DNA from: Flavobacteriales bacterium
Lineage (GTDB): Bacteria > Bacteroidota > Bacteroidia > CAIKAF01
Direction of reading: 5' to 3'
Assembly (NCBI GenBank): GCA_025451235.1
Contig: JANWKT010000020.1
Coordinates: forward strand, 48,032 to 112,031
DNA length: 64,000 nt
Shown piece by piece: positions 5,925 to 24,037 of the stretch (position 1 is its first letter; the number at the start of each line of letters is the position of its first letter). A program made the position numbers and the translations under genes. The notes beneath the pieces were generated by a model, which worked only from the letters and a program-made list of their open reading frames with translations, did no database searches and had not been told where the DNA came from.

Positions 5925-6293
5925 AGTCGTTTTAAATAATAGAAGAATGAAGGTATCTACATTTACATTTCAACCTGTTACAAAATTTTATAAATAGATT
6001 GCATCATTAACGAATGAAGGTTGATATTCATTTAAAACCTTGAATAACAGTTATTCAGCATTTTTAGTAGAGCCTCGATTGCGTTAACGGCTTAGTTAGC
6101 TGAAATGTCAGTAAAAACAGCATTTACAGGAGCATAATCCACCTCAAACTGGCTTAAAATATAAGGAAATTAACAACACCCTGCTTATAAGTTCGATGGT
6201 TATTGGTGAATGCGCTCTTCGGGTACCATACCTTTATGCTTATTTCAACCAAAAACAATTCTTAATTATTGCCACAGTTCAATACCATTATCT

Positions 6294-7835
6294 ATGGAAA
6301 TGAATAACTGTAAGCCGTTAAGATTTCTGATCGGATCTTGTCTCCTTATAGGAGGGATCCTTTCAGTGTCCGCCCAAACCTTTGTTCCCAAAGCCTCTTA
6401 CCTAGGGCAATGGGCCTTTGCCCCCGGGGTAGCGCATCAACCCAGCCAATCTATTTACCTCATGGGTACCTACCAGTTTGGAGATATTGATCAATTTATT
6501 AAATATGATGTAACCAATAATAGCTGGAGCACCATACCAGGAGTACCTCCTATCAAAAGTGAATTTGGATTTGCTTTTGGGGTGAGCAACAGAATATTTT
6601 TTGGAGGCGGTGTGGACCAACCAGGAACATTCTCCAATGCCACATATGAATTCATTCCTCCCAATATCTTTAACGTAGTAGATAATATTCCAAATGGACC
6701 CGCATCTGCCTTTAATTTCGTTGTTGGTAATTACGCCTATGTAGGTGGAGGTATGGTTACAGGTTTTGTGAATCTGAATAGTATGTTCCGGTTTGATCCT
6801 ACAGGAGCTGCGGGTACCCAATGGTCGGCTGTGAGTTCCTATCCTGGTTCAGGTAAATTAAATTGTAGTGCTGGTTCTCTCAACGGTTTTGGTTATGCAG
6901 GATTAGGACGTTCGAATCCCGGATCTACCGAATACAATGATTTCTGGAGATATGATCCCAATACAGGTGCAGGCGGAACATGGACTGCAATGAGTCCCTT
7001 CCCTGGAATTGCCAGGGAATGTGCCATCCTTACCCCCATTTGTGGAAAGTTGATCTTAATGGGAGGGGTTACCCAAACAGGAATGAACTTTAATGATATA
7101 TGGCAATTTGATCCTGCTGCCGGACCTTCGGGAGCCTGGACCTATCTTGGGACCAATAACGGAGTATATGGACCTCAAAACGGAAGATATGGGCCTGCTT
7201 ATGCTTCCTACGGAGATAGTTTGTTCTTAGGAATGGGGTATGGCGTGGCAGGAGCTAATAATGATTGGAAAATGTTTACATATTGTCCGGTAGTTCCCCT
7301 TCCAATCGAACTGGTGAATTTTAATGTTCAATTGAATCAGGAGTATGGAGTGGATATTTTATGGACAACTGCTTCGGAGATCAATAACCACCATTTTGAG
7401 GTGCTGAGATCAGTAGATGCGATCCACTGGGAGACCATTGAGCAAATAGAAGGTGCAGGCAACTCATCTTCATTGTTGGAGTATCAGGTGATCGACCGAT
7501 TTCCGATGCAAGGAATCAATTATTATAAAATAAAACAGGTGGATTATAATGGAGATTTTACATTTTCTGAAATGGCATCTATTGAAATCCTCGAAAACTT
7601 CCCTGAAGATCCTACGGTTTACCCAAACCCCGTAGAACAAAACCTGGAAGTAATTATTCAATACCTAACAGAAGGCATGTCCTATACTATATTGAATTGC
7701 TATGGTTCAGAAGTATTAAATGGGAAGATCAATGACGGTCAAACCACCATTCCTACCCAATCCCTTGCTCCAGGTATTTATTACCTGCGAATTCGCGATT
7801 CAAAAGAATCTACGTTCAAGATCATCAAGCTTTAG
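6294..7835 (+). CDS. Kelch/beta-propeller-like secreted protein with a conserved ~95-aa LPIELV…YYKIKQVD module and T9SS type-A CTD (paralog 1)
   Basis: Signal peptide from the internal Met. Glycine-rich propeller repeats. C-terminal VYPNPVEQN…GIYYLRIRDSKESTFKIIKL. Confidence 0.75.
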   Translation: MEMNNCKPLRFLIGSCLLIGGILSVSAQTFVPKASYLGQWAFAPGVAHQPSQSIYLMGTYQFGDIDQFIKYDVTNNSWSTIPGVPPIKSEFGFAFGVSNRIFFGGGVDQPGTFSNATYEFIPPNIFNVVDNIPNGPASAFNFVVGNYAYVGGGMVTGFVNLNSMFRFDPTGAAGTQWSAVSSYPGSGKLNCSAGSLNGFGYAGLGRSNPGSTEYNDFWRYDPNTGAGGTWTAMSPFPGIARECAILTPICGKLILMGGVTQTGMNFNDIWQFDPAAGPSGAWTYLGTNNGVYGPQNGRYGPAYASYGDSLFLGMGYGVAGANNDWKMFTYCPVVPLPIELVNFNVQLNQEYGVDILWTTASEINNHHFEVLRSVDAIHWETIEQIEGAGNSSSLLEYQVIDRFPMQGINYYKIKQVDYNGDFTFSEMASIEILENFPEDPTVYPNPVEQNLEVIIQYLTEGMSYTILNCYGSEVLNGKINDGQTTIPTQSLAPGIYYLRIRDSKESTFKIIKL

Positions 7836-7983
7836 CTTTCGCATCCTTCATAATAGCTAGAACCACTTGTCCTTAGCCCAGGGTCCTCTTATTTATCCCT
7901 GATTTATTTGCTGCAGTTATTATTAATCGCTAATTTCAGTTTGATTTTAACAGCACAAAAGTTAAACCCAAATCAATCCGGTT

Positions 7984-9525
7984 ATGATCACTCTTCATAA
8001 AAAAATATTTTATTCAATTTATTTAGTTGGATTTTTCATTTTACTGAATTCAACTTTTGCAGATGCTCAAACTTTTTTGGCTAGAACACCTTATTTGGGT
8101 CAATGGGCATTCGCACCAGGGCTAGCACATTTACCTACTACCTCTATTTATATTCCGGGCACCTACCAGTTTGGAGATGTTGACCAATTTGCCAGATACA
8201 ATGTAACCACAAATTCATGGAGTACAGTGGCAGGTTTACCCGCCATAAAAAGTGAATTTGGTTTTGCTTTTACGGTGGGGAACCGAATGTTTTTTGGAGG
8301 TGGGGTGGATCAGCCCGGTACTTTCTCAAATGTTACCTATGAATTTATTCCTCCTAATATTTTTACCACCATGGATAATATTCCTAATGGCCCAGCATCG
8401 GGATTTAGTTTTACGGTAGGAACCTTTGGATATGTGGGTGGAGGATTGGTGGCTGGATTTGGAAATTTAAATGCTATGTTCAGGTTTAATCCATTAGGTA
8501 TTCCAGGCACGCAATGGTCAACGATGACTGCTTATCCAGGTTTGGGAGATATTAATTGTGGGGCAGCTTCATTGAATGGATATGGATACGTTGGTTTAGG
8601 AAGAGCTAATCCGGGAGCAACGGAGTACAACGATTTTTGGAGATATGATCCACTCTTAGGTGCTGGAGGAACCTGGACAGCTATGGCACCCTTTCCTGGT
8701 GCACCCAGAGAATGTCCGATCATTTCTGCATTATGCGACCGGCTTATTTTAATTGGTGGGGTAGATCAATCGGGGGGTAATTTTAATGATATCTGGGAGT
8801 TTGATCCTACCGCCGGAGCTACCGGTACCTGGACCTTTTTAGGAACCAACAATGCGGTATATGGTCCGCAAAATGGACGTTATGGTCCTGCCGCAGGGGC
8901 CTACGGGGATAGCTTATTTTATGGAATGGGATATGGTGCACTTGGAGTTAACACGGATTGGAACATGTTTACCTATTGCCCAATACCATTGCCTATACAA
9001 CTCCTGAGTTTTGAAGCAAATAAATTAGATGGAGATATTGTAGAATTGAACTGGACCACTGCATCAGAGATCAACAATGATCATTTTGAAATTCAAAGAT
9101 CCATGGATGCAATGAACTGGATCGAAATGGGAAGAGTAAACGGAGCTGGAAATTCTTCTTCGAACATTCATTACCAGCATATTGATTATTCTCCATTTAA
9201 TGAGATCAATTACTACCGTTTAAAACAAGTGGACGTAGACGGGAAATTTGAATATTCCTGGATTATCTCCATTGATATTGATAAAAATAAAAAACCTGAA
9301 ATATTGGCTTACCCCAACCCCTCTTATGATTTTGTGAATATTACCCAAACTATTCAGCCTAGCCCTCTTTCCTATTCTATCTATGATAGCTTTGGAACAA
9401 AGATCTCTTCCGGAACTTTGGGAGAAGAAAAAAACGTATTGAGTACGGATGAGTTGTTACAGGGAATTTATTTTATGCATTTCGATGATAAAAACAATAC
9501 TACTGTGAAGATCATTAAATACTAA
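7984..9525 (+). CDS. Kelch/beta-propeller-like secreted protein with the LPIQLL…YYRLKQVD module and T9SS type-A CTD (paralog 2)
   Basis: Colinear with 6294..7835 at roughly 60–65% identity along the whole length. Ends …GIYFMHFDDKNNTTVKIIKY. Confidence 0.75.
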   Translation: MITLHKKIFYSIYLVGFFILLNSTFADAQTFLARTPYLGQWAFAPGLAHLPTTSIYIPGTYQFGDVDQFARYNVTTNSWSTVAGLPAIKSEFGFAFTVGNRMFFGGGVDQPGTFSNVTYEFIPPNIFTTMDNIPNGPASGFSFTVGTFGYVGGGLVAGFGNLNAMFRFNPLGIPGTQWSTMTAYPGLGDINCGAASLNGYGYVGLGRANPGATEYNDFWRYDPLLGAGGTWTAMAPFPGAPRECPIISALCDRLILIGGVDQSGGNFNDIWEFDPTAGATGTWTFLGTNNAVYGPQNGRYGPAAGAYGDSLFYGMGYGALGVNTDWNMFTYCPIPLPIQLLSFEANKLDGDIVELNWTTASEINNDHFEIQRSMDAMNWIEMGRVNGAGNSSSNIHYQHIDYSPFNEINYYRLKQVDVDGKFEYSWIISIDIDKNKKPEILAYPNPSYDFVNITQTIQPSPLSYSIYDSFGTKISSGTLGEEKNVLSTDELLQGIYFMHFDDKNNTTVKIIKY

Positions 9526-9621: not shown

Positions 9622-11835
9622 TTAATCCACCACGATATAGATCTGGTTGTTATGAACGAATTGAACGTTTCTGGCCTTGGTTAAATATTCCTTGGCGGTT
9701 TTATCGGTATTCACCAGGTTAAAATACTCATCGCTGGCAAATTTTATTTCTTTTTTCTTCAGATTGGAATTCGTCATTACATCTGCATCGATCATCTGGT
9801 TGTTCTGATAATACATGGCCCTACCATTGGCAATGGTATTATAGTTGACTATATCCATTGCTTTATCTGATTCTGATCCTTCATTCACTTTCATCCGCTT
9901 ATTTCCGGCTTTTGTATCAGAATAATTAGCAGCTCCATTGAGTTGCTGCACCTCTTCACTCTGGGTCATGGATATTTTTCCGTTGTCTTTTTGCAGATCA
10001 TCATATTCTTTCTCCATATTCATCGAACCCTGTCCAAGTGCCCCGTCGTTGAAAATAGTGAACCCGTTTCTGTCAACGTTACTCACTTTTTCATCCTCTA
10101 ATATGAGGTAACTTGTATAAGGAGTAATAATTCCATACCTGCGAGCCAACGTAACAATTTCGTCCTTGATCTCCTCGTTCTCGCCGGTAAGCCTGATCTG
10201 ATCCAACAGATCTCCAACCCTTCTGGATGCCCAAATAGATGGAACAAATTCATTGCTCATGGCTTCCTCTTTCCAGGCTACATCATATTCAAATTTCTGC
10301 ACTATCCCGTTCAGCTTGCCCTCAACAATTAATGTTGAGTTTCCAGGATTACGGAAACGACCACTGATGGTTAATGAGCTTCCATAAAAAATATCCGGAC
10401 AGTTCTTAGGAAAGATTTGATACTCATTAGGAGCATCTGCAAAATATATTTTCACATCCGTAAGTACAGGGGCAGATATCTTCGAGAAGAAATTGGTAAC
10501 GGTAGAACTAATATCATCCCCTTCCGAAACATAAGCCCTGAGGCCTCTTCCATCTGCTGCAATTTTATCCAACAATTTAATATTGAGGTCCTCCCCTATT
10601 CCAAAAGTAAAAATACGATGGCTCTTCGAATTGGCATCTGTTATTTTTTTCATGAGTTTTCCTTCATCGTATTCGCCAATGGTCGGTTTTCCGTCAGTAA
10701 TAAAAATAATATTCGAAGGGCGCAAAGGGTCGACCTTCTCTGTAAATGCCAGCCTGAATGCATCATCCATATTGGTCCCACCCAAGGCTTCTATCTTATC
10801 GATAAAAGCAAACGCTTTTTTCTTGTTGATTTCATCTGCGATCATTCTTTTTCCAAAAAGCTGATAAGCTTCCGTACCAAAAGTGATCACTTCAAACTTA
10901 TCCCCAGGATTTAGGATCTCCACACACTTAGTAAGGGTATTTCGGGCCTGAATGATCTTATCACCTCTCATGCTTCCGCTGATATCCATAATAAATGTCA
11001 CATCCTTGTTCACAATTTTATTCTGCTCAATAAACCCTGGACTAATATCCGCGATAAAAAATCCGTCCTCATTTTGTTCCTTGAACTGGAACATTGACAT
11101 TCCAAGTAAAGTAGAAGAAGTGGAGTAATACAGTTTGAATTGTGAAGGCATCGCATCGTTTCCTAATTCCATGGAAGCCTTGGCTTTGAAGTCGGAAGAA
11201 TGGACCACATCCACCAAATGAGTAGGCGAATACACATTCTTGATCTTTTCATTGGATTTGATATCCACATTCAATACTACCTCATCAATAGGTTTTGAAT
11301 TATACTTCAATGCATTCAATGGATAGGAATATTCGTAAGTACCGTTATCAATTGGCATATGATGTGCAAATACCAGTTTGATCTCTTTGGTTGATTTGGG
11401 CTCAATGGGAAATATCCTCATTCTTAACATCCCCTGATCTGAAAATTCAAGCAAAGCAGGGTCCTTCATCTGGCGAACAATATCTTCATAGACCTGTCTT
11501 GCCTTTAAAGCATCCAACATTTCCGCTTTTACCATTTGCCCATTCATTTCCATTCTAAATTCTTTGATGATAGCATTTTTGGGTAAGGGGAAAAAATAAT
11601 CCCCTTCCATTCGTTGTGAAGTACTGTTCTCGAATGTTTGTTCAACGGTGGTGATGGCTATTGGTCCGTCCATTTGAACGTCTATCCTTAGTTTTTTACA
11701 GTGTAGGGTATAATCCTGCACCCGCTGGGTCTGTATATTGGCCATAGCTGCATTGGTGATGATAAAACCACCCGCGAAACTGAACAGGCAACTGCAGCAG
11801 ATGGCTGCCATTACCAAAAATATTTTTTTGTTCAT
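9622..11835 (-). CDS. Secreted VIT-domain + vWA-domain protein
   Basis: Signal peptide. The N-terminal region resembles a vault/inter-alpha-trypsin (VIT) domain. MIDAS motif DISGSM with downstream T..G and ITDG motifs. Confidence 0.8.
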   Translation of the reverse strand: MNKKIFLVMAAICCSCLFSFAGGFIITNAAMANIQTQRVQDYTLHCKKLRIDVQMDGPIAITTVEQTFENSTSQRMEGDYFFPLPKNAIIKEFRMEMNGQMVKAEMLDALKARQVYEDIVRQMKDPALLEFSDQGMLRMRIFPIEPKSTKEIKLVFAHHMPIDNGTYEYSYPLNALKYNSKPIDEVVLNVDIKSNEKIKNVYSPTHLVDVVHSSDFKAKASMELGNDAMPSQFKLYYSTSSTLLGMSMFQFKEQNEDGFFIADISPGFIEQNKIVNKDVTFIMDISGSMRGDKIIQARNTLTKCVEILNPGDKFEVITFGTEAYQLFGKRMIADEINKKKAFAFIDKIEALGGTNMDDAFRLAFTEKVDPLRPSNIIFITDGKPTIGEYDEGKLMKKITDANSKSHRIFTFGIGEDLNIKLLDKIAADGRGLRAYVSEGDDISSTVTNFFSKISAPVLTDVKIYFADAPNEYQIFPKNCPDIFYGSSLTISGRFRNPGNSTLIVEGKLNGIVQKFEYDVAWKEEAMSNEFVPSIWASRRVGDLLDQIRLTGENEEIKDEIVTLARRYGIITPYTSYLILEDEKVSNVDRNGFTIFNDGALGQGSMNMEKEYDDLQKDNGKISMTQSEEVQQLNGAANYSDTKAGNKRMKVNEGSESDKAMDIVNYNTIANGRAMYYQNNQMIDADVMTNSNLKKKEIKFASDEYFNLVNTDKTAKEYLTKARNVQFVHNNQIYIVVD

Positions 11836-11843
11836 ATTACCTA

Positions 11844-13016
11844 TTATTTAAAGGTATAGTTCTTTTTCTCAGCTACCGACTTTACACTTTCAATCACCGC
11901 CTGATCCAAAGAGTTGGCTTCTCCTTTTTCTTTCATTTTTTCGTCAATAAATGCCTGACGTTGTACGTTGATCAAATTGATCTCATTCTTGATGGTGTCT
12001 CTTTTGGCAGACTGATCTGATACATATTTTACTTTTTGGTCATCATCCATATCCTTCATCGCTTCTGGCAATTCCTCTTTTTTAAGCTTTTTTATGTCCA
12101 CTTTATTTTCTTTTTGGGCATCTACCAGGTCCCAACTACCATTATAGTATCCACTACCCGCTTTGGCTACCGCTCTGTCAGCAATATTGGCTTTAGAATA
12201 GGATTCAGCATTTTTATCCTGGTTGGTTTGATTGGTTGCTGCCAAAGTCCCTTCAGCTCCATAAAATATATAAGTGGAATTCAGTTCATTGTTCAGCCTG
12301 ATCAAGGTTGAATCAAAAGGAGTTTCAATATAAACGGTGGCTTCATTCATATTAATACTTATAAATGATCCATCAGCCAACAAAGCTCCATCTTTCCATC
12401 CGGAATTAGCTCCATCCGATTCGTTGCCACAGTAAATAGTATTGATAATGATCCCTTTTTTAATGGCATCCCTGCAAGCTTTTTGGTAATCTATTGATCC
12501 TTGATTGAAGGGTTCGTTTCCAGCAATATAAACCAGCTTCAGGTCTTCATTCGATTCGGTCCAAGCCAAATTCAAAGTGGCATCCTGAATAACTGCACCG
12601 CAATATTCACTGCCGCCGTTGGTGGATAATTTAAAAAGTTCTTCCGATACCTTGTCAAGATCCGTTGTAAATGGAAGTACCTGTTGAATATAATTGCTTT
12701 GGGAAGATAATCCATCATTTCCATAATGGTACAATGCGATCTCTATGGTTGGTTTTTCGCCATTATATTCAGCTGTGGCCAGTTCATTCACTATTTTCCA
12801 TAATTGCGATTTGGCTTGTTCGATCAGGCCATCCATGCTGCCGCTGGTATCCATTAAAAGTGCTACCTGTATTTTTTGTTTACCATGGACCCATGATGAT
12901 GAAGATCGTTTGATAGCGGTTAACTTATCGGCTGCGGATACGGTTGATCCGGCCAATGCAGAGCTCAAAATACCTATCGATACTAATGCTGTTAATAGAA
13001 TTGCTCGTTTGCTCAT
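11844..13016 (-). CDS. Secreted vWA-domain protein with a charged, coiled-coil-like C-terminus
   Basis: Signal peptide from the internal Met (MSKRAILLTALVSIG…). MIDAS motif DTSGSM. Only 9 bp from the upstream VIT-vWA gene on the same strand. Confidence 0.75.
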   Translation of the reverse strand: MSKRAILLTALVSIGILSSALAGSTVSAADKLTAIKRSSSSWVHGKQKIQVALLMDTSGSMDGLIEQAKSQLWKIVNELATAEYNGEKPTIEIALYHYGNDGLSSQSNYIQQVLPFTTDLDKVSEELFKLSTNGGSEYCGAVIQDATLNLAWTESNEDLKLVYIAGNEPFNQGSIDYQKACRDAIKKGIIINTIYCGNESDGANSGWKDGALLADGSFISINMNEATVYIETPFDSTLIRLNNELNSTYIFYGAEGTLAATNQTNQDKNAESYSKANIADRAVAKAGSGYYNGSWDLVDAQKENKVDIKKLKKEELPEAMKDMDDDQKVKYVSDQSAKRDTIKNEINLINVQRQAFIDEKMKEKGEANSLDQAVIESVKSVAEKKNYTFK

Positions 13017-13135
13017 AATATTTAATTTTTTGTTTTTGAGGAACTCACCACTCATCGTGATTGAATTCATTTTTACCTATTTTTATGTATTGATTACACC
13101 CCAAAAAAAATTAGGTTCATTTTTTCTGAGTTTTT

Positions 13136-13210
13136 TGGCGGCCTGCCTGCTATAGTGCAGGCCTGCGCTCCGGCAGGCAGGCTCCCCGGCTATCCAACAG
13201 GCAAGCCAGG
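13136..13210. repeat. GC-rich nested palindromic element: gcctgcctgc – gcaggcctgc (self-palindrome) – gcaggcaggc
   Basis: Three related decamers at 13141-13150, 13157-13166 and 13174-13183. The outer two are reverse complements, and the middle one is a perfect palindrome made from half of each. It stands out as locally GC-rich in an AT-rich divergent intergenic region. Confidence 0.45.
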
Positions 13211-13275
13211 GGGCTAAAAGAAATCTATCCGTTTCTGAATAAATTTTCGGACTTTTGTGTTTCAATTGATACATA

Positions 13276-13710
13276 GTGAACAGAGCTATCATATATATAG
13301 GTATCCTTCTTACATTTTTAATTACCGGTTGCGGTGCATCAAAAGAACAAAAGCAGAACAGGGAACTGGAAAAACTAGCGCTGGAGGTAATGAACATACA
13401 CGACCGCAGTATGCCCGATCATGGAAAATTGTTCAAGTTAAAAAAGAGTTTGCTCGCCATCTATGAAAGCGTTTCAGACACTCTGGTAAAAAAAGAGATA
13501 TCCTCAACCATTGAAGATATCGATCACGCTGATAGGGGCATGATGGACTGGATGCATCATTATACTGCACCGGCAGATTATCTTCCCTTCGAAGAAAAGA
13601 AAGCCTATTATCTTGAACAGAAAAAAATAATTGAAGATGTAGAAAAGTTGACCACCCAAACCATAGAGAAAGCAAAACAAATCATTGATGCATATCCCTC
13701 AGTAGAATGA
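13276..13710 (+). CDS. Hypothetical lipoprotein with a Met/His-rich patch (DHADRGMMDWMHHY); GTG start
   Basis: Lipobox LITGCG. Its stop overlaps the start of the downstream SCO1 gene by 4 bp. Confidence 0.55.
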   Translation: MNRAIIYIGILLTFLITGCGASKEQKQNRELEKLALEVMNIHDRSMPDHGKLFKLKKSLLAIYESVSDTLVKKEISSTIEDIDHADRGMMDWMHHYTAPADYLPFEEKKAYYLEQKKIIEDVEKLTTQTIEKAKQIIDAYPSVE

Positions 13711-14366
13711 TCCAAAGAATCGCTATTATATTATTTTTACCGATCCTCATGATGAGTTGTGGTAAAAAAAATGTCCAGGAAGCCCATCCAAAAACAAAAA
13801 GTTTACCTTATCTGGGCGAACCAGGTATCACCTCTCATGAGGAAAACGGGAAACTGGTGGCAGATACTATTTATCCTACAATTCCTGAATTTTCGTTTAC
13901 GAACCAGGATGGAAAAATGGTGAACCTAAAGACTTTCGATGGAGGTATCTACGTAGCTGATTTCTTTTTTACGACCTGCCCCACGATTTGCCCAAAAATG
14001 AAAGCGGAACTATTAAGGGTTTATGATGCTTTTAAAAATGAGCCCAGGGTAAAAATATTAAGTCATACCATTGATCCGGAACACGATAGTGTACCCGTGC
14101 TTCGTGAATATGCCAGCCGTTTGCAGGTGAGTAGTGATAAATGGAATTTTGTAACAGGTGACAAGGATTCTATTTATACCATCGCCGAATATTATTTATG
14201 TACTGCCGAAGAAGCTCCGAATGAACCTGGTGGTTATATTCACAGTGGCTCGTTGATATTGATCGATCATGAAAAACATATTCGTGGGATGTACAATGGA
14301 ACCAAACCCGAAGAAGTGGATCAGTTGATAAAAGACATTCCATTATTGTTAGGTGAAATCAAATAG
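13707..14366 (+). CDS. SCO1/SenC family copper chaperone (thioredoxin-like)
   Basis: Lipoprotein signal. The CxxxC motif FFFTTCPTICP is the SCO1 signature. Confidence 0.85.
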   Translation: MIQRIAIILFLPILMMSCGKKNVQEAHPKTKSLPYLGEPGITSHEENGKLVADTIYPTIPEFSFTNQDGKMVNLKTFDGGIYVADFFFTTCPTICPKMKAELLRVYDAFKNEPRVKILSHTIDPEHDSVPVLREYASRLQVSSDKWNFVTGDKDSIYTIAEYYLCTAEEAPNEPGGYIHSGSLILIDHEKHIRGMYNGTKPEEVDQLIKDIPLLLGEIK

Positions 14367-14769
14367 ATCCTATATCATCATTATTGTGGTTTGCCTGCTA
14401 CTTATTGGGCTGGTATTGATCGTTACCCAATCCAAAAAAAAGGATTATCTCACCAGAGGAAAAATGAGTTACGAAAAACATTGTGCCAATTGTCATGGGA
14501 TAAAAGGGGAAGGTTTACAATTATTGATCCCACCATTAACTGATCCCACCTGGACCCAAAACGATTCCATTGCATGCATTATTAAATATGGAATGGAGGG
14601 AAAGATCATGGTCAATGGAAAAGAATATAATAACCGAATGACCGGAAACGCGGTTATTGAAAATGACGAGATTGCGGATTTGGTTAGTTATATCCGAAAA
14701 GAATTTACCCAAATGCCTAAACGAATGACCCTAAAAGTAGCCGGAGAACAAATTTTAAAGTGCAAATAA
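14353..14769 (+). CDS. Membrane-anchored class I c-type cytochrome
   Basis: N-terminal TM anchor. CANCHG haem-binding CxxCH motif. Overlaps the SCO1 stop. Confidence 0.8.
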   Translation: MKSNRSYIIIIVVCLLLIGLVLIVTQSKKKDYLTRGKMSYEKHCANCHGIKGEGLQLLIPPLTDPTWTQNDSIACIIKYGMEGKIMVNGKEYNNRMTGNAVIENDEIADLVSYIRKEFTQMPKRMTLKVAGEQILKCK

Positions 14770-14846
14770 TCAGCATCTTAGCGTATTTATCCCTTTCAAT
14801 GTTAAGCCAATGTTACCAAAATGTAACCTAATTGTAAATTAGTCGT

Positions 14847-14854
14847 TATATTTG
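14847..14854 (+). promoter_or_regulatory. Bacteroidetes-type -7 promoter element TAnnTTTG (TATATTTG)
   Basis: Exact match to the published Bacteroidetes sigma-A -7 consensus, 28 bp upstream of the ATG at 14882. The same motif (TAAATTTG) occurs at 18743-18750 and 26125-26132, upstream of other genes. Confidence 0.35.
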
Positions 14855-14881
14855 CTACATCACCAATAAACAAAGGGAATC

Positions 14882-15274
14882 ATGAAAAGAATCCTCATCC
14901 TGACAACCCTCCTTCTTCCTTTAGCTATTTTTAGCCAAGGAGTCAATAAATTCAGCTATAATGTTGAGGGGCAACTAAGTGCTTCATATATCGGATCGGA
15001 TAATGGCAACTATACCGTTGTTAAATACCATGAAAATGGGGTAAAGGCATCGGTTGGTCATTTTAAGAACGGAGAAAAACATGGAATATGGAAAACATGG
15101 GATTCTAACGGAAAACTAGAAGCCATCGCTCATTATGCAAATGGTGAAAAAACTGGAAAATGGAAAATTGTTGACCAAGCGGATCATACTGTTTTTGAAA
15201 TCAGCTTTAGTCATAACCATATGTTGCATGCCTGGAAAAAAAATGAGCATGGGCACGTGATTGCAAAAAGATAA
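14882..15274 (+). CDS. Secreted MORN_2/YwqK-like repeat protein
   Basis: Signal peptide. G..Y..NG.K..G.WK..D.NGKL…Y.NGEK.GKWK repeats. Confidence 0.55.
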   Translation: MKRILILTTLLLPLAIFSQGVNKFSYNVEGQLSASYIGSDNGNYTVVKYHENGVKASVGHFKNGEKHGIWKTWDSNGKLEAIAHYANGEKTGKWKIVDQADHTVFEISFSHNHMLHAWKKNEHGHVIAKR

Positions 15275-15423
15275 TTACCTTACTCGCAAGAAGGTATGAA
15301 CATCATTCCCCTGGAATGGTGTTTTTTTTTAGCCAAATGATATTCCAGAGGAAAAAGATCATCCAATCTGATAGATAGCATTTTTTATTTCGTACATTTA
15401 TATAGAATCTATTCATCGGTGTT

Positions 15424-16590
15424 ATGAAAAATATACCCGGAGCTCTTAACCTGTCCATCAAAAATTTTTTGTTACTGATTTGTTGTATGCTGAACTCATC
15501 CAGCTCCTTTTCTCAGTTATGCAATGGATCGGGTAACGTAGTGGTTTTTTCTAATTATGATGGTTCTGGTAACACAGCCGCAACTAGATTGAACATCAAT
15601 GTGGATGTAAATATTGCCAACTTAAAAATAGGTATCGCCTCTTATGAAAGAGTTACTGTAAATATTGCAGGTGCATTTGTTGGAAACGTAACCGCTGTCC
15701 GTTGGGCCGGATATGGAGCCACCAATAACCATTGCACTTCTACAGCGGCTACTGTAATTACTGGTGTACCGGCCGGTATTATTACTTATGTAACGAGTCC
15801 TCCGGCTACAGTCAGTGATCCTCTGGGTAATGCTAATATTATTGGAGGCTATTCATGCCCAATGGGAAATGGCGGGGGTTCGGCAAGTATGTATCAAATC
15901 GTGAATTATTTTTTATCGGCATTCGGTCCTGGCAGCACCTTGCGCTCTTCTTTTTCACAATATGGTTGTTGGGCTGGTGCTACAAAAAACTTATCTGCAG
16001 GTGCTTCTGGCAATTGTTGCCCCGCCACTCCGCTGCCTATAGAGCTGGTTTCGTTTACAGAGTCATGCGATCAGAATCGCAGAACACTTAATTGGACCAC
16101 TTCATCAGAAATCAACAATGATTATTTTACGGTGGAAAGATCTGTTGATGCTGTTAACTATGAACCTATGGCTGAAATAAGAGGTGCTGGCAATTCAAAT
16201 ACCCTGATGCATTATGAATGGGTGGATGAATCTCCCCTGCCAGGGATCAATTATTATCGCTTAAGTCAGACTGACAATGATGGAACCACTGAATATTTTG
16301 AACCTATTTCCGCTGGCCCTGAATGTGGTCCAAAGTCATCAGATCTTACCATCATACATAATCCCACTGAATCTGTGCTTAGCTTTCAGGTAAATGGATC
16401 CATGAATGATGAGGTACTCAATATTCATATTTACGACTTAAAAGGAGGTTCTGTATTGAATAAAAAACTTATTTCCATGGAAGGAACCAACATTTTCATG
16501 ATTGATATCGAATCACTCGAAAGAGGTGTCTACTTTTTAAGAGTTGAAAGCGAAACTTATTCGGTACAGAAAAAATTTATTAAGATCTAA
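15424..16590 (+). CDS. Secreted protein with the LPIELV…YYRLSQTD module and T9SS type-A CTD
   Basis: Signal peptide. Shares the ~95-aa module with the genes at 6294 and 7984. Ends …GVYFLRVESETYSVQKKFIKI. Confidence 0.7.
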   Translation: MKNIPGALNLSIKNFLLLICCMLNSSSSFSQLCNGSGNVVVFSNYDGSGNTAATRLNINVDVNIANLKIGIASYERVTVNIAGAFVGNVTAVRWAGYGATNNHCTSTAATVITGVPAGIITYVTSPPATVSDPLGNANIIGGYSCPMGNGGGSASMYQIVNYFLSAFGPGSTLRSSFSQYGCWAGATKNLSAGASGNCCPATPLPIELVSFTESCDQNRRTLNWTTSSEINNDYFTVERSVDAVNYEPMAEIRGAGNSNTLMHYEWVDESPLPGINYYRLSQTDNDGTTEYFEPISAGPECGPKSSDLTIIHNPTESVLSFQVNGSMNDEVLNIHIYDLKGGSVLNKKLISMEGTNIFMIDIESLERGVYFLRVESETYSVQKKFIKI

Positions 16591-16793
16591 AGAGCCGACT
16601 TCCGGTTGGAAAACTCTTTGAGGCAGTCAGGACATAAGCAATCATCAAAATCTTTTTTAATATCCGACAGTTGTTCCGGCAATAATTTAATGCCCAGGCA
16701 CCAACATTCTCCCTCAGGAGTACAGGTAAATTTACGGTGGCACTTTGAACAGGTTTTATTGGGTTTATTCTTCACTGATAGTAATACTAACAT
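16587..16793 (-). CDS. Small cysteine-rich protein (CWC-type)
   Basis: 68 aa with CSKCH…CTPEGECWCLG…CLCPDC. Cys spacing resembles the Cys_rich_CWC family. Weakly supported as a gene. Confidence 0.45.
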   Translation of the reverse strand: MLVLLSVKNKPNKTCSKCHRKFTCTPEGECWCLGIKLLPEQLSDIKKDFDDCLCPDCLKEFSNRKSAL

Positions 16794-18755: not shown

Positions 18756-21113
18756 ATGGGATTCAACAAATACCTGGGATTTTTCTTTATTTTTTGGCTG
18801 GGCCTTGTATCCTCCTTTTCTCAGAAAGCCAGCATTTATGGAACCGCTGTTGATACCCTGAGCGGGGAAAAGTTGATCGGAGTAACAATATCAGTAAATG
18901 GTAAACCCGTTTCCAATACGGATATTGGGGGGAAATTCGCTATTGAACTGGATTCCGGGACCTATATACTTTCGTTCAATGTATTGGGCTATAAAACATT
19001 TGAAGAACAGATCACACTTGCAGCCGGTGAAAAGAAAGAAATGAAAATCCTCATGAAGGATGCGCCCAAAGAGATGGGAACCTATGTGGTATCAGGTAGC
19101 CGGTATGACAAGGATATCAGTAAAGAAACCATTTCCATGGATGTGATATCCGCTCAGTTGATCAAAAATACCAATTCCATTGATGTTGCTGAAGTGGTCA
19201 ACCGGGTACCCGGTGTACAGATTACTGACGGGCAGGCCTCCATACGTGGGGGGGCTGGCTATTCTTATGGTGTGGGTTCGAGGGTTAACTTTTTGCTGGA
19301 TGGGATCCCTTTGATTGCGGGTGACCTCGGAAATGTTGAATGGAATCTGGTACCGATTGAAAACATCAGTCAGGTGGAAGTAATGAAAGGTGCTTCATCG
19401 GTTTTCTATGGAAGCGGATCATTGAATGGAGTGATCAATGTAATTACCGATTGGCCCACCGCCAAACCTTCTACAAGCATCAGCGTATATTCACAATTAT
19501 TCGGAGATCCCAGAAGATCGGATACCAAATGGTGGAGCTCAACCGAGCAACCCATGGCTACCGGGGTGTTCTTTAATCATTCCAGGCAGATCAAAGAAAA
19601 TACAGACCTGGTAATAGGAGGAAATTTTCATATCGACCGAAGCCCCTTACAAGGAAATAGCCAAACCAGGGGTAGGATCAATTTCAAGTTTAGACATAGG
19701 TTTAAAAAAACTCCCGGTCTTTCTATTGGACTTAATGGAAATTTTATGTTTGAAAGGGCCGGTCGTTTTGTATTGTGGCAAAATGCGAATGAGGGAATTT
19801 ACCGACCCACTTTTTCTTCAGATGATAAATATTATTTTCTTGTATTGGATCCGCATCTGAAATATTTCGACAAAAAGGGCAACAAACATGCCGTAACGAT
19901 GAGATATTATCGAAAATTTAGGTACGGATTTGATGGGGATATTGATGCTGTTGCCAATAATCTCTTACTGGATTATCAGTACCAGCGTAAATTCATCAAG
20001 AACATGTTCACAGTAACCGCTGGTGCTTACGTAAATTATGGATGGATCCAAAGCAATTTATTTCCGGATAGCCTTCAGCTGGATTCAAATGGAAATGCCA
20101 ATCATTTTTTTCAAACCTATGCAGCCGCAGCATTTGCGCAACTCGAATTTAATTATAGAAGGTGGAGTGTGGTAGCGGGTGTAAGGTACGAGTTAAACGG
20201 AGCTGACTTCCTGGTAGAAGGATCTTTGCCTGTATTTCGGGGTGGAATTAATTTTAGAGCTGCTAAACGAACTTTTTTACGTGGTTCCTTCGGACAATCT
20301 TATCGCATTCCTTCTTTGGGAGAAAGATTTATCAGAGCTGAATTGGTCCCGGGATTTTATGTACTGCCTAACTATGGCCTTAAACCTGAACGGGGATGGA
20401 GTACGGAATTAGGGGTCAGGCAAGAATTCAATATCACCAAAAAATGGACGGGTTATGCCGACCTGGCTCTTTATTGGATGGAATATACTGATATGATACA
20501 GTACAACGTAGGAAACTATCCACCTGATGGTATCGGCTTCAAAGCTTTTAATATTAGTCAGGCAAGGATCATGGGATTTGAATTCACGGTGGGAGGAAAA
20601 GGGAATATAGGACCTGTACAAGTGAACGCCTATGGAGGATATAATTATTGCTTTCCGGCAAACCTTTCCTCACATCCCGGATTGAATAATCTGGGAAATT
20701 ACCTGGATACTATGTTCAGGTATTTTGGAAACCATTTGCTCGATAGCAGTTCATTCAATGATATGTTGCTCCCTTTCCGCAATCGACATACGTTAAGAGC
20801 AGATGTGGATCTTATGTGGAAGAATATAAGTGTAGGATCTACTTTTTATTTTATGAGCACCTATGAATATATTGATCCGAATTTTATCTTCATGGAAATA
20901 GCCATTATTGATTTTATCAATCCATGGATCACCACCCATAAAGGTTATAGAGGAGATTTTACGATGGACGTGAGGGCATCTTACCATTTTAAAAAGATCA
21001 ACACCAAGGTCAGTTTCCTCATTAAGAACCTTACCAATCTCGACTATATGGCACGCCCAGGAGTAATGAATCCTCCACGAAGCTTTAATGTGAGGCTGGA
21101 TTTCAATTTTTAG
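18756..21113 (+). CDS. TonB-dependent outer-membrane receptor with N-terminal CarboxypepD_reg domain
   Basis: Signal peptide. CarboxypepD_reg domain, plug region, and a long beta-barrel ending in terminal Phe (…RLDFNF). A TAAATTTG -7 motif lies only 5 nt before the ATG. Confidence 0.85.
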   Translation: MGFNKYLGFFFIFWLGLVSSFSQKASIYGTAVDTLSGEKLIGVTISVNGKPVSNTDIGGKFAIELDSGTYILSFNVLGYKTFEEQITLAAGEKKEMKILMKDAPKEMGTYVVSGSRYDKDISKETISMDVISAQLIKNTNSIDVAEVVNRVPGVQITDGQASIRGGAGYSYGVGSRVNFLLDGIPLIAGDLGNVEWNLVPIENISQVEVMKGASSVFYGSGSLNGVINVITDWPTAKPSTSISVYSQLFGDPRRSDTKWWSSTEQPMATGVFFNHSRQIKENTDLVIGGNFHIDRSPLQGNSQTRGRINFKFRHRFKKTPGLSIGLNGNFMFERAGRFVLWQNANEGIYRPTFSSDDKYYFLVLDPHLKYFDKKGNKHAVTMRYYRKFRYGFDGDIDAVANNLLLDYQYQRKFIKNMFTVTAGAYVNYGWIQSNLFPDSLQLDSNGNANHFFQTYAAAAFAQLEFNYRRWSVVAGVRYELNGADFLVEGSLPVFRGGINFRAAKRTFLRGSFGQSYRIPSLGERFIRAELVPGFYVLPNYGLKPERGWSTELGVRQEFNITKKWTGYADLALYWMEYTDMIQYNVGNYPPDGIGFKAFNISQARIMGFEFTVGGKGNIGPVQVNAYGGYNYCFPANLSSHPGLNNLGNYLDTMFRYFGNHLLDSSSFNDMLLPFRNRHTLRADVDLMWKNISVGSTFYFMSTYEYIDPNFIFMEIAIIDFINPWITTHKGYRGDFTMDVRASYHFKKINTKVSFLIKNLTNLDYMARPGVMNPPRSFNVRLDFNF

Positions 21114-21164
21114 TACAATCTATCGGTAATTACAACGTTCATATTTCACAGTAACCCGAAAATA

Positions 21165-21590
21165 ATGAAGGGAATCTTTTTTATTATATTGGTTTTTATC
21201 TTAACCACTTCATTGGTACATACCCAAGTATTTATAGAAATTGAGGGAGAAGACAAAAGTGAGCTTCGAGGTACTAATATTCGAGGAGGATGTCCAATAC
21301 CCATACTTCCAGAATATCCAGGAGGCATAGACAGCTTACACGCATTTCTTAATCGAAATCTTACCTTACCAAAACCTGATACCTGTCAGGAAGAAAAAAT
21401 CTGGATTGTTTTTACCATTGATTCCACTGGTCAAGTCGTCGATATTTCGTCAGTAAGAGGAGGTTGTAAAGCATATATTGATGAAGCTATCAGAGTATTT
21501 TCTATCATGCCCAAATGGATACCAGGTAAATCCAGTGGTAAACCAACAAAAGTACAATATCGGCTTCCTATCATTTTTAAAAAGGAATAA
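21165..21590 (+). CDS. Secreted protein consisting only of a TonB C-terminal-like domain
   Basis: Signal peptide plus PEYPGG…IWIVFTIDSTGQVVDISSVRGG… (TonB_C-like). It has no TM anchor or proline-rich spacer. Confidence 0.55.
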   Translation: MKGIFFIILVFILTTSLVHTQVFIEIEGEDKSELRGTNIRGGCPIPILPEYPGGIDSLHAFLNRNLTLPKPDTCQEEKIWIVFTIDSTGQVVDISSVRGGCKAYIDEAIRVFSIMPKWIPGKSSGKPTKVQYRLPIIFKKE

Positions 21591-21625
21591 AAATTGGACA
21601 TTCCACATGTGCAGACAGTGGTCCA

Positions 21626-21776
21626 TTTATTTTTTGTCAATACCGTTTGTCATCTCGACCTGGATCGGGGAGAATGGCTTGCAGGGAGTGGAGAGATCTC
21701 AAATTTAACGATGAGATTTCTCCACTCGCCGCAGGCAGATCACCCATGGCTGGGTCGAAATGACAAAAAATAAAAG
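21626..21776. repeat. ~150 bp nested inverted-repeat element (outer arms ~22 bp, inner 16-bp stem)
   Basis: Outer arm tttattttttgtca…tctcgacc pairs with ggtcgaaatgacaaaaaataaa (21753-21774), with a 13-nt bulge in the left arm. The inner stem ggagtggagagatctca/tgagatttctccactc has one mismatch around a 10-nt loop. Confidence 0.5.
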
Positions 21777-21779
21777 CCT

Positions 21780-22979
21780 GTGCCGCGTATTTTTCCTACC
21801 TTGCTCCCAACCCCAATCAATCTTTCTATGTCCACCGTTGATATTATACCCCTCACAGCACTGGTCGTTTTTGTTTTCACCGGATTCTTCATGGCCAAGA
21901 TCAAATTATCCAAAATAAAAAAATGGATCATCTCCATCACATTGATGTCATCATCGATGATCATGATATTTGTGTATTTCAATCAGCTGGCTCCCCGTTA
22001 CAGAGATGCATTTTGCATCAATGAAATTACTTATTTCAAGGGGCCTAATGGAAACCTCATCCTTGTTCAACACAATGCATCCGTTCCTTCCAAAGTTTCG
22101 ATCTCCTATTCCAGGTTAAGTGTGTTGGATGCTGAAACCGGAAAGATCATGCATACTGTTGTAGCAGGTCCTTCCATGAGTAACAAAAAAGAATTGTTCC
22201 TGGAATTGGTAACCGATGATAAGATCTGGTATAGCAGTTATAAGTTTGGCTTACATGCCCGGGATCCATATACGGGCAAAATTGTATCAACGGAAAAGGA
22301 CATTATAAAAAGATACCCTCAATTGAACGGATCAACCAAAGTGCAGGTAAAAACGGATGATGGTTACTTGTTCGAATCAAAGCCACCCGATTTTAACCTC
22401 AAAATGATCTCTTATCCTCGCAATAAACTCAATAGTGGTGAAAGCTTTATTCAAGCCGATCGGGAACCACATCATTCTACCTATCAATATATTTCTGCCG
22501 AGGTGCTTGAAGAACATTTGTATAACTTGGATACTTCCTATTTTCGGTTAGCCTGGGATCATGGTATTGCCATTATGGACGCAGAAAAAGGATTCTGCTT
22601 TGAAAATAACGACAAAGATGACCGTGATGTGATGCAACTTATGCTGGCACGTAATACAAAATATGGATATAAGCAGGATAGTTGCCTAAATAACGAACTG
22701 AACCTGAGAAGTCCTTTTATCATCGAAAATTATTTATTGAAAAATCCCAAAAGTCTATTGGTAGGCCATTATGGTTATGATGAAAAGAGGGATATTCAAT
22801 TTTTGATGAGTAGAATAGACCTGGATGGTAATATCTTATGGACCCTCAAACAACATGAGTTAGGCGGAGAACCCAATATTTTTAGTTTAAATAATGGAAT
22901 TTTATATTTAGCCATCAAAGGCAAACTGGTAGCTATTGATCCGAATACAGGAAGTAAAAAATGGTCAATACAGCTTTGA
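21780..22979 (+). CDS. Hypothetical membrane-anchored protein with a C-terminal PQQ/beta-propeller-like region; start uncertain (alternative ATG at 21828)
   Basis: Two N-terminal hydrophobic segments. C-terminal …DGNILWTLKQ…LYLAIKGKLVAIDPNTGSKKWS is PQQ-repeat-like. Confidence 0.5.
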   Translation: MPRIFPTLLPTPINLSMSTVDIIPLTALVVFVFTGFFMAKIKLSKIKKWIISITLMSSSMIMIFVYFNQLAPRYRDAFCINEITYFKGPNGNLILVQHNASVPSKVSISYSRLSVLDAETGKIMHTVVAGPSMSNKKELFLELVTDDKIWYSSYKFGLHARDPYTGKIVSTEKDIIKRYPQLNGSTKVQVKTDDGYLFESKPPDFNLKMISYPRNKLNSGESFIQADREPHHSTYQYISAEVLEEHLYNLDTSYFRLAWDHGIAIMDAEKGFCFENNDKDDRDVMQLMLARNTKYGYKQDSCLNNELNLRSPFIIENYLLKNPKSLLVGHYGYDEKRDIQFLMSRIDLDGNILWTLKQHELGGEPNIFSLNNGILYLAIKGKLVAIDPNTGSKKWSIQL

Positions 22980-22984
22980 TAAAA

Positions 22985-24037
22985 CTATGGTTGACTAAAA
23001 GCGGGATTTGCTATGAAATCCGGATCGGTCAATGTTTTCAAAAAGTTGATGAGGTCGATTTTTTCCTGTGCCGTTAAATTCAATCCGGGTTGCTGACTTC
23101 CAGGTAAGTGTTTCATCAAAGGGTCTACGGTACTGCTTTCGATCCCGCCCTGATCGTAATGATTCACTACATCGTCTAAGGTAGCAAAGCGACCGTCATG
23201 CATATAGGGGGCAGTTAACTCAATATTGCGCAAAGTGGGCACCTTGAATTTTCCTCGATCGGAAAGCAATCCGGTTACATCCATTCTTCCATCATCTGTC
23301 ATCGAAGCATCACTATCAAGCCCGTTATTCCTAAACTGATTATCTGTTGCCAATCCATTGGTGAGTGTATGACAATGAAAACAATCTCCTTTTTCGGTGT
23401 TATAAATAACAAGGCCGTTTAGTTCAGAAGTCGTTAGATTTACCTCCTCTCGGACAAATTTATCAAACTTGCTATTACCGCTTATCATCGTCCTTAAAAA
23501 CTGGGCAATCGCTTTGGAAACGTGTACCGAATCAATCACATCAATATCAAATGCCTGTTTAAACAGGTCACGATAGGTGGCAGATGCATTCAGTTCTGCT
23601 TCCACCTCAGGCCAGGTAGTATTCATTTCTATCGGGTTGGTTACTGGCCCATAGATCTGGTTTTCCAACGAGCTTGCTCTTCCATCCCAGAAAAATTCTG
23701 TGCCCCAGGCCAGGTTAATGGTGGCCATGGAGTTCCGGTCGCCTGCAAACCCATCAACTCCTATACTATATTGTAAACCATCATCCGTAAATCCATAGGA
23801 TTGTACATGACAATTGGCGCATGACTGAGCATCATTTTTAGAGAGAAGAGGGTCGTAAAATAATCTTCTTCCCAATTCTATTCCTTCCACCGTCATCGGA
23901 TTATCAGCCGGAAGTGTAGGCGTAATAAACCCAACGGGAACCTGAAAGGTATAGGGTGTGGTGGCTGGTTCCTTCTCACAACTGGTGAAAATAAAAGCAC
24001 CTGTAAGTCCTAATAATATGAATGCTCGTTTATCCAT
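22985..24037 (-). CDS. ccp: Di-haem cytochrome c peroxidase (CCP/MauG family)
   Basis: Lipoprotein signal. Two CxxCH motifs (CANCH, CFHCH) with spacing typical of bacterial CCP. Confidence 0.85.
   Translation of the reverse strand: MDKRAFILLGLTGAFIFTSCEKEPATTPYTFQVPVGFITPTLPADNPMTVEGIELGRRLFYDPLLSKNDAQSCANCHVQSYGFTDDGLQYSIGVDGFAGDRNSMATINLAWGTEFFWDGRASSLENQIYGPVTNPIEMNTTWPEVEAELNASATYRDLFKQAFDIDVIDSVHVSKAIAQFLRTMISGNSKFDKFVREEVNLTTSELNGLVIYNTEKGDCFHCHTLTNGLATDNQFRNNGLDSDASMTDDGRMDVTGLLSDRGKFKVPTLRNIELTAPYMHDGRFATLDDVVNHYDQGGIESSTVDPLMKHLPGSQQPGLNLTAQEKIDLINFLKTLTDPDFIANPAFSQP

Follow-up and report, generated by a model that had tools for sequence, protein, structure and literature searches.

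What is the function of the small unnamed lipoprotein gene that lies directly in front of the SCO1 gene in a Flavobacteriales genome? The gene, called ORF1 here (open reading frame, ORF), was found in a 64,000-nucleotide stretch of Flavobacteriales bacterium DNA (GenBank assembly GCA_025451235.1, contig JANWKT010000020.1, positions 48,032 to 112,031 of the forward strand). This whole stretch is called the window. The delivery of copper to respiratory oxidases is known in detail for Proteobacteria, Bacillus, Thermus, and mitochondria. For Bacteroidota, which rank with the most abundant bacteria of soil, sea, and gut, the literature searched gave nothing on this route. An earlier note, made from the sequence alone, had proposed that the ORF1 product may be a new copper-handling partner of SCO1. 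The residue chemistry and the gene neighbours of ORF1 suggest, with about an even chance, that it is a new all-helical periplasmic Cu(I) carrier working with SCO1.

The three ORFs of the cluster are located on the plus strand at 13276–13710 (ORF1), 13707–14366 (ORF2), and 14353–14769 (ORF3). In the raw sequence and the ORF list, the first overlap (ORF1 with ORF2) is the 4-base ATGA at 13707–13710, and the second (ORF2 with ORF3) covers 14 bases (14353–14366), as had been reported from the first reading. The same overlapping order of ORF1, SCO1, and cytochrome c was found again in relatives; thus, the trio is not a chance arrangement. The three genes form a tight unit that is probably co-translated.

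ORF2 starts with ATG and encodes a SCO1/SenC lipoprotein of 219 amino acids. It matched the Pfam family SCO1-SenC (PF02630) with 95 bits (cut-off 22.8) and an E-value of 4.6e-27. The best solved relative was Bacillus subtilis Sco/YpmQ (1XZO, 3.5e-25), with the CxxxC motif and the His aligned. The copper ligands of ORF2 are C91-PTI-C95 (C91-x3-C95; 13977–13991, plus strand) and H179 (14241–14243, plus strand). C18, C91, C95, and H179 were invariant in 18 cluster SCO1 proteins (alignment A5). With a signal peptide and the lipobox MMS-C18, ORF2 is predicted to be tethered to the membrane and to face the periplasm. ORF3 starts with GTG and encodes a membrane-anchored class I cytochrome c of 138 amino acids, with an N-terminal hydrophobic helix at residues 7–25 and a heme site at C44-A-N-C-H48 (14482–14496, plus strand). 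It matched PF00034 (42.2 bits, cut-off 21.3, 2.1e-10) and PF13442 (37.7 bits, cut-off 27, 2.6e-09) in Pfam. The best solved relatives of ORF3 were the C-terminal cytochrome c domain of three-domain copper nitrite reductase (5e-10) and Thermus c552, which are cytochrome c domains feeding electrons to copper centres. The Met in the ORF3 segment NNRMTGN, a candidate for the distal sixth heme ligand, aligned with a Met-containing segment of the nitrite reductase cytochrome domain. The Pfam matches, the ligands, the CANCH motif, and the N-terminal helix bore out the SCO1 and membrane-anchored cytochrome c assignments of the earlier note.

ORF1 (13276–13710, plus strand, GTG start) encodes a lipoprotein of 144 amino acids, a candidate Cu(I) carrier from an unnamed Met/His/Trp three-helix-bundle family. 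The signal peptide and lipobox LLTFLITG-C19 are encoded at 13276–13332, with the Cys codon at 13330–13332, and ITG-C19 satisfies the lipobox pattern [LVI][ASTVI][GAS]C after a signal peptide. Conservation was evaluated in an alignment of ORF1 with 149 diverse representatives sharing 21–58% identity with it. The lipobox Cys19 was present in all 148 aligned members with a residue at that column, and the position before it was Ser, Ala, or Gly in 141 of the 148. The public NCBI record of the ORF1 product (P0001) is a protein of 106 amino acids that starts from Met39 and has lost the signal peptide and Cys19. The GTG at 13276 aligned with the ATG start of four close relatives, all of which encode the same signal peptide. 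Since the starts align, the signal peptides are shared, and Cys19 is never replaced, the 144-amino-acid form is the real protein and the 106-amino-acid version is shortened.

ORF1 had no match in Pfam, NCBIfam, or the PDB. At E ≤ 1, only four Pfam families were returned, all weak and unrelated. When 150 and 16 family members were searched individually against Pfam and NCBIfam, no consistent family was obtained, and the matches were scattered coiled-coil noise. Profiles of 11 and 150 relatives (A1 and A2) gave nothing below E = 0.04 against all PDB chains, and Foldseek with the ORF1 model gave nothing at E ≤ 0.001 against the PDB. The first reading had recognized no family for ORF1, which was borne out. 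It had also named a confident match to a non-metal-binding family as refuting its proposal; none was found in Pfam, NCBIfam, or the PDB.

The family is nevertheless large by number of clusters. A word-indexed protein search with ORF1 returned only 11 close relatives, while a profile search, exhaustive over 1.84 billion cluster representatives, returned 2,133 clusters (50% identity) at E ≤ 0.001 and 637 at E ≤ 1e-10. The best 150 of the 2,133 clusters were all single-domain proteins of 101–175 amino acids. A second profile search in a word-indexed protein database gave no fusions and only single-domain proteins without a Pfam domain. A DNA pattern covering both sequence motifs of the family (described below) gave 0 matches in viral contigs. 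Family members are named "hypothetical protein" in public sources and "Viral A-type inclusion protein" in UniRef; the latter is a misnomer for coiled-coil-like sequence. A scan of one genome per GTDB species yielded at least 546 confirmed loci. They were mainly from Bacteroidota, including Saprospiraceae, Cyclobacteriaceae, Pontibacter, Runella, Ekhidna, Reichenbachiella, Chitinophaga, Maribacter, and Flagellimonas, and one member was from Desulfogranum. No description of the family, of Bacteroidota Sco partners, or of helical Met-rich chaperones was found in the literature searched. The ORF1 family, its fold, and its motifs are undescribed in Pfam, NCBIfam, the PDB, or that literature, and the role of Sco partner is already known as a kind.

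The three-dimensional structure of ORF1 was predicted with AlphaFold2 from an 11-sequence alignment. The model had a predicted local distance difference test (pLDDT) score of 89.6 and a predicted template modelling (pTM) score of 0.75, and showed three helices (residues 23–65, 69–95, and 105–139) after the signal peptide. An independent model of P0109, which is 30% identical to ORF1, had a pLDDT of 91.4 and the same three helices. Neither model contained strands. The nearest structures found by Foldseek were designed bundles and adaptor domains. An AlphaFold model had been suggested as a check on the original proposal, and the two independent models gave a confident three-helix bundle.

Across the 150 aligned members, C19, H42, M46, M89, W92, and M93 were invariant. 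D43 (99%), A85 (95%), Y111 (94%), and L82 (93%) were nearly so. Position 96 was aromatic (Y/F) in 93%, and M90, M39, and D86 were kept in 89%, 79%, and 71%, respectively. Position 49 was Met in 117 members (78%), Thr in 17, and His in 5, and is His in the window protein. Motif 1, H42-D43-R-S-M46, is on helix 1 (13399–13413, plus strand); motif 2, D86-R-G-M89-M90-D-W92-M93-H-H-Y96, is on helix 2 (13531–13563, plus strand); and Y111 is on helix 3 (13606–13608, plus strand). Both H[DN]xxM and MxxWM were present in all 224 family proteins gathered.

The Met/His patch on which the earlier note had based its proposal, DHADRGMMDWMHHY, is present in ORF1 from D83 to Y96 exactly as quoted there. Only part of it was conserved. 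M89, M90, W92, and M93 were kept, as was D86 at its lower level, but the histidines H84, H94, and H95 were not: H84 and H95 were outside the four commonest residues at their positions, and position 94 was His in 48 and Arg in 54 of the 150 members. The invariant histidine is instead H42, which lies 47 residues upstream in HDxxM on another helix. Orthologs lacking the Met/His residues had been named as evidence that would refute the proposal; no member without the Met/Trp core was found among the 150, and the His part varied.

M39, H42, M46, and residue 49 are spaced 3-4-3 and therefore line one face of helix 1. Counted from the turn between helices 1 and 2, H42 and M46 would lie within about one helical turn of M89–M93. 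Y111 would be at about the level of M89, counted from the loop between helices 2 and 3. Both positions are estimates from the helix register, the former being approximate. The mature family proteins contained 6.9% Met, and 186 of the 224 had no Cys. This Met-rich, mostly Cys-free composition was as expected for a periplasmic Cu(I) site. Four of the 224 had His-rich tails.

Gene linkage was investigated from both sides. On the family side, 80 loci from GTDB species genomes were used, 79 of which had room to judge, and SCO1 was adjacent to the family gene in 59 of the 79. SCO1 was directly 3′ on the same strand, usually overlapping, in 46 loci, and the cytochrome c gene came next in 38 of these. 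In the 13 others, an opposite-strand SCO1–cytochrome c pair converged on the 3′ end of the family gene; the stop codon of the pair abutted that of the family gene in 10 and was 0.5–1.4 kilobases off in 3. Neither arrangement was present in 21 of the 80 loci, one of which had no room to judge. When the neighbouring ORFs were clustered all against all, SCO1 (56 loci) and cytochrome c (50 loci) were the only widely shared neighbours, and the next commonest was an ABC ATPase (15 loci).

On the SCO1 side, 80 metagenome loci were fetched with a profile of the cluster SCO1 proteins, and 74 had room to judge. The ORF1 family was adjacent in 56 of the 74, directly upstream in 48 and convergent after cytochrome c in 8. 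The family was absent from 18 of the 80 loci, and 6 had no room to judge. Cytochrome c followed SCO1 in 69 of the 80. The linkage between the ORF1 family and SCO1 is kept when the gene orientation changes and extends over several orders, so inherited synteny alone does not account for it. Linkage in both directions strongly backed the partnership of ORF1 with SCO1 that had been proposed.

In 10 of the 18 SCO1-side loci without the family, the gene 5′ of SCO1 was a UPF0093 gene, which from our own reading of the sequences we take to encode the heme-synthesis enzyme HemJ. No alternative chaperone-like protein was found 5′ of SCO1 in these 18 loci. The UPF0093 neighbour was also considered as CopD and rejected, with 141 bits for the UPF0093 model and 36 for CopD. 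On the family side, the opposite-strand operon was HemJ–SCO1–cytochrome c in 12 of the 13 convergent loci (L009, L019, L020, L023, L024, L031, L034, L036, L041, L047, L067, and L075; for example, L031 at 6407–8029, minus strand). These loci were from Cyclobacteriaceae, Ekhidna, Reichenbachiella, and Marivirga-type genomes. The operon ties a heme-synthesis gene to a copper chaperone. A MacB-type ABC transporter, a weakly matched DUF3299 protein, or both were found 5′ of the family gene in 8 loci, namely six of these 12 together with L014 and L021.

Two loci connected the family with another copper protein. In Catalinimonas niigatensis (L085, 10001–14189), the 3′ neighbours of the family gene, 20 bases away, encode a diheme peroxidase resembling MbnH and the protein MbnP (Pfam MbnP), and SCO1 is absent. 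In an uncultured Sphingobacteriales genome (L030, 5887–9326), the order is family gene, SCO1, MbnP relative, and MbnH relative, the last two being recognized from their similarity to the L085 proteins. MbnP binds copper at a site that contains His, Met, and a kynurenine formed by MbnH (PMC11951088). The grouping of the family gene with MbnP and MbnH may represent a wider copper-acquisition module. MbnP/MbnH are followed in L085 by genes for a DUF3050 (heme-oxygenase-like) protein and another peroxidase.

The genes and their overlaps, the predicted fold, the invariant residues, the family size, and the two-way linkage with SCO1 and cytochrome c were observed. From these a mechanism can be proposed, in which we infer that a metal is bound, which metal it is, which way it is passed on, and which enzyme finally receives it. 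ORF1 would be a periplasm-facing lipoprotein with an antiparallel three-helix bundle and a cysteine-free cluster of soft-metal ligands. The cluster would consist of H42 and M46 on helix 1, flanked by M39 and residue 49; and M89, M90, M93, and W92 on helix 2, with Y111 on helix 3 at about the same level. It would bind Cu(I) much as CusF does with its His/Met/Trp site, or PCuAC with its His/Met site, but on a different fold. ORF1 would exchange copper with SCO1, the lipoprotein translated from the same mRNA, and SCO1 would in turn load or repair respiratory copper centres, for example CuA or CuB in heme-copper oxidases. The electron that keeps copper as Cu(I), or the SCO1 cysteines reduced, would come from the membrane-anchored cytochrome c. 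More tentatively, and with somewhat less than even confidence, the whole family may be an unrecognized class of periplasmic Cu(I) metallochaperone in which a lipid-anchored three-helix bundle carries the His-Met3-Trp site. In Bacteroidota it would replace PCuAC, and the assembly of respiratory copper centres would draw on it through SCO1 and, in some species, through MbnP-type proteins; a dedicated cytochrome c would provide the electrons.

The proposed role resembles those of known copper proteins, and the folds are different. Cytochrome c domains fused to Sco, as in Pseudomonas putida, transfer electrons to Sco, which would explain the third gene, ORF3. In the window, cytochrome c and SCO1 are instead encoded by separate overlapping genes, and ORF1 is added as a third partner. 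CtaK (YtkA), a Bacillus subtilis lipoprotein, helps Sco in CuA assembly where PCuAC is absent. CtaK is thus a precedent for lineage-specific Sco partners like ORF1, but it has a beta-sandwich YtkA-like domain with no sequence or fold relation to the ORF1 family. In CusF, one His and two Met coordinate Cu(I), and a Trp caps it through a cation–pi interaction. This residue set is the same as the ORF1-family invariants H42, M46/M89/M93, and W92. However, CusF, a five-stranded beta-barrel, works for an efflux pump, whereas ORF1 is helical and no efflux genes were found among the recurrent neighbours of its family. CopM (DUF305) and PcoE/SilE are helical, or become so on binding, and hold Cu(I)/Ag(I) with HxxM/MxxH-type spacing, which may be compared with H42xxxM46 and M89xxxM93 of the ORF1 family. 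They serve resistance and are unlinked to SCO1. Sco also works with the periplasmic Cu(I) chaperone PCuAC, a beta-barrel with a His/Met site and the motif H(M)x10Mx21HxM (PMC7558416). PCuAC (PccA/PcuC, DUF461, PF04314) is like the proposed ORF1 in being a small periplasmic Sco partner with a His and Met Cu(I) site. ORF1 differs from it in being all-helical and lipid-anchored, with the motifs HDxxM ... MMxWM.

Membership of ORF1 in each of four known families was considered and rejected. For PCuAC, the ORF1-family models were helical, no PF04314 match was obtained at E = 1, and PF04314 was missing from the 25 families that the 150 members matched most often (E ≤ 0.01). For the CusF/CopC type, the models contained no strands and neither family appeared among the fold matches listed. 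For DUF305/CopM, PF03713 was absent from the Pfam results, and the fragment 3BT5 ranked only 46th in Foldseek, with an E-value of about 1.1. For cytochrome b562, the hhalign probability was 0.2%, and the ORF1 model has three helices against a four-helix bundle.

Several observations weigh against a Cu(I) carrier that exchanges copper with SCO1. SCO1 is missing from the surroundings of about a quarter of the family loci, as in Flavobacteriaceae, in which the family gene is solitary and close to gldD. Genes for copper exporters, multicopper oxidases, or oxidase subunits did not occur among the recurrent neighbours or in three fully read neighbourhoods, most one-off neighbours being unannotated. 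The spacing between motif 1 and motif 2 varies from 42 to 57 residues, which blurs the clustering estimated for the residues. Part of the conservation could also be structural, because several conserved residues are on or next to the helix core face. This last point would agree with a helical scaffold or adaptor lipoprotein that binds no metal, holds SCO1, cytochrome c, or both at the membrane or docks them on a target enzyme, and uses Met, Trp, and His for packing or as a protein–protein interface. The three-helix bundle is generic, with designed bundles and adaptor domains as its nearest structures, and the gene linkage fits any physical partner of SCO1 equally. Such a scaffold is nonetheless unlikely, since interfaces and cores seldom keep a His, three to five Met, and a Trp invariant at 21–58% identity, and the usual core positions of these proteins vary between Leu, Ile, and Val. 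The occasional His49, the His-rich tails, and the MbnP/MbnH neighbours also point to metal.

If ORF1 binds metal, its purpose could differ from the assembly of oxidases through SCO1. ORF1 could bind copper or silver in order to buffer the metal in the periplasm or to confer resistance, like CusF, CopM, or PcoE/SilE, or it could supply other copper proteins, such as MbnP. Resistance chaperones use the same ligand set, and the loci without SCO1, including L085 with MbnH/MbnP, would fit such a role. However, no CopA, CusCBA, CopB, multicopper oxidase, or copper-sensor gene was present among the recurrent neighbour families of the 80 loci, where unique neighbours were unannotated. Moreover, 75% two-way linkage, usually with overlapping stop and start codons, is the pattern of dedicated partners, and the buffer or resistance role is considered decidedly unlikely. 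Binding of heme b through His/Met axial ligands, as in cytochrome b562, would make ORF1 a small redox partner or heme carrier for cytochrome c. This function would be consistent with the invariant His on one helix facing invariant Met residues on another, with the cytochrome c gene in the same cluster, and with hemJ (UPF0093) heading the SCO1–cytochrome c operon in one clade. But a three-helix bundle leaves little room for heme. Heme would need just one His and one Met, whereas the family retains four to seven Met plus a Trp. The sequence and fold matches of ORF1 included no heme protein from the PDB, and heme binding is regarded as very improbable.

If ORF1 is a Cu(I) carrier for SCO1, more than 2,000 clusters labelled "hypothetical" or "viral A-type inclusion protein" would gain a name. 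As a third independent fold with a His/Met/Trp Cu(I) site, the family would clearly exemplify convergent evolution. It would provide a simple genetic and biochemical handle on copper supply in Bacteroidota. Records such as P0001, which have no lipoprotein signal, could be corrected.

Upstream of the trio, a conserved block, TTTCTGAATAAATTTTCGGACTTTTGTG (13232–13259, plus strand), ends 16 bases 5′ of the ORF1 start codon. The block was nearly identical in the window and four relatives, and the remaining intergenic region was variable. The block is probably the operon promoter or 5′ leader. A scan for the sigma-70 consensus gave background level only, as expected for Bacteroidota, and an Rfam search of 12900–15500 gave no match. 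A G+C-rich imperfect palindrome with 21-nucleotide arms (81% complementary) is located at 13140–13183 in the A+T-rich divergent intergenic region 5′ of ORF1. Relatives of the window had different G+C-rich inserts at this site. The palindrome had no Rfam match and no second copy within the window. The divergent gene pair on the minus strand (9622–13070) encodes a VIT-VWA protein (737 amino acids) and a VWA-like protein (408 amino acids). The pair keeps its position beside the trio in all four close relatives and is not conserved in the wider family.

Downstream, a MORN-repeat secreted protein (Pfam MORN_2) is encoded at 14882–15274 on the plus strand, 112 bases after the trio. The MORN gene adjoins the trio only in the close relatives L001 and L003, and it lies outside the conserved module. 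The sole terminator-like hairpin on the plus strand here is at 15298–15324, 3′ of the MORN gene; therefore, the MORN gene may be co-transcribed with the trio on a four-gene transcript.

Other genes of the window were also noted. The stretch 18756–24037 encodes a TonB-dependent receptor (18756–21113), a small TonB_C-like protein (21165–21590), a 399-amino-acid protein with only a weak match to the PQQ_2 (BamB-family) beta-propeller, and a convergent MauG/CCP-type diheme peroxidase (22985–24037). MbnP is absent from this stretch, and thus the stretch has no clear tie to the operon. A 68-amino-acid cysteine-rich ORF (CSKCHRKFTCTPEGECWC...CLCPDC) at 16587–16793 on the minus strand closely follows, and overlaps, a folB-like gene. 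Secreted proteins are encoded at 873–2318, 6210–9525, and 15424–16590, and two of them are Kelch-repeat proteins. The first three (873–2318 and 6210–9525) carry Pfam type IX secretion C-terminal sorting domains, in keeping with the window being from Bacteroidota, and the C-terminus of the 15424–16590 ORF, read by eye from the sequence, resembles a type IX sorting domain.

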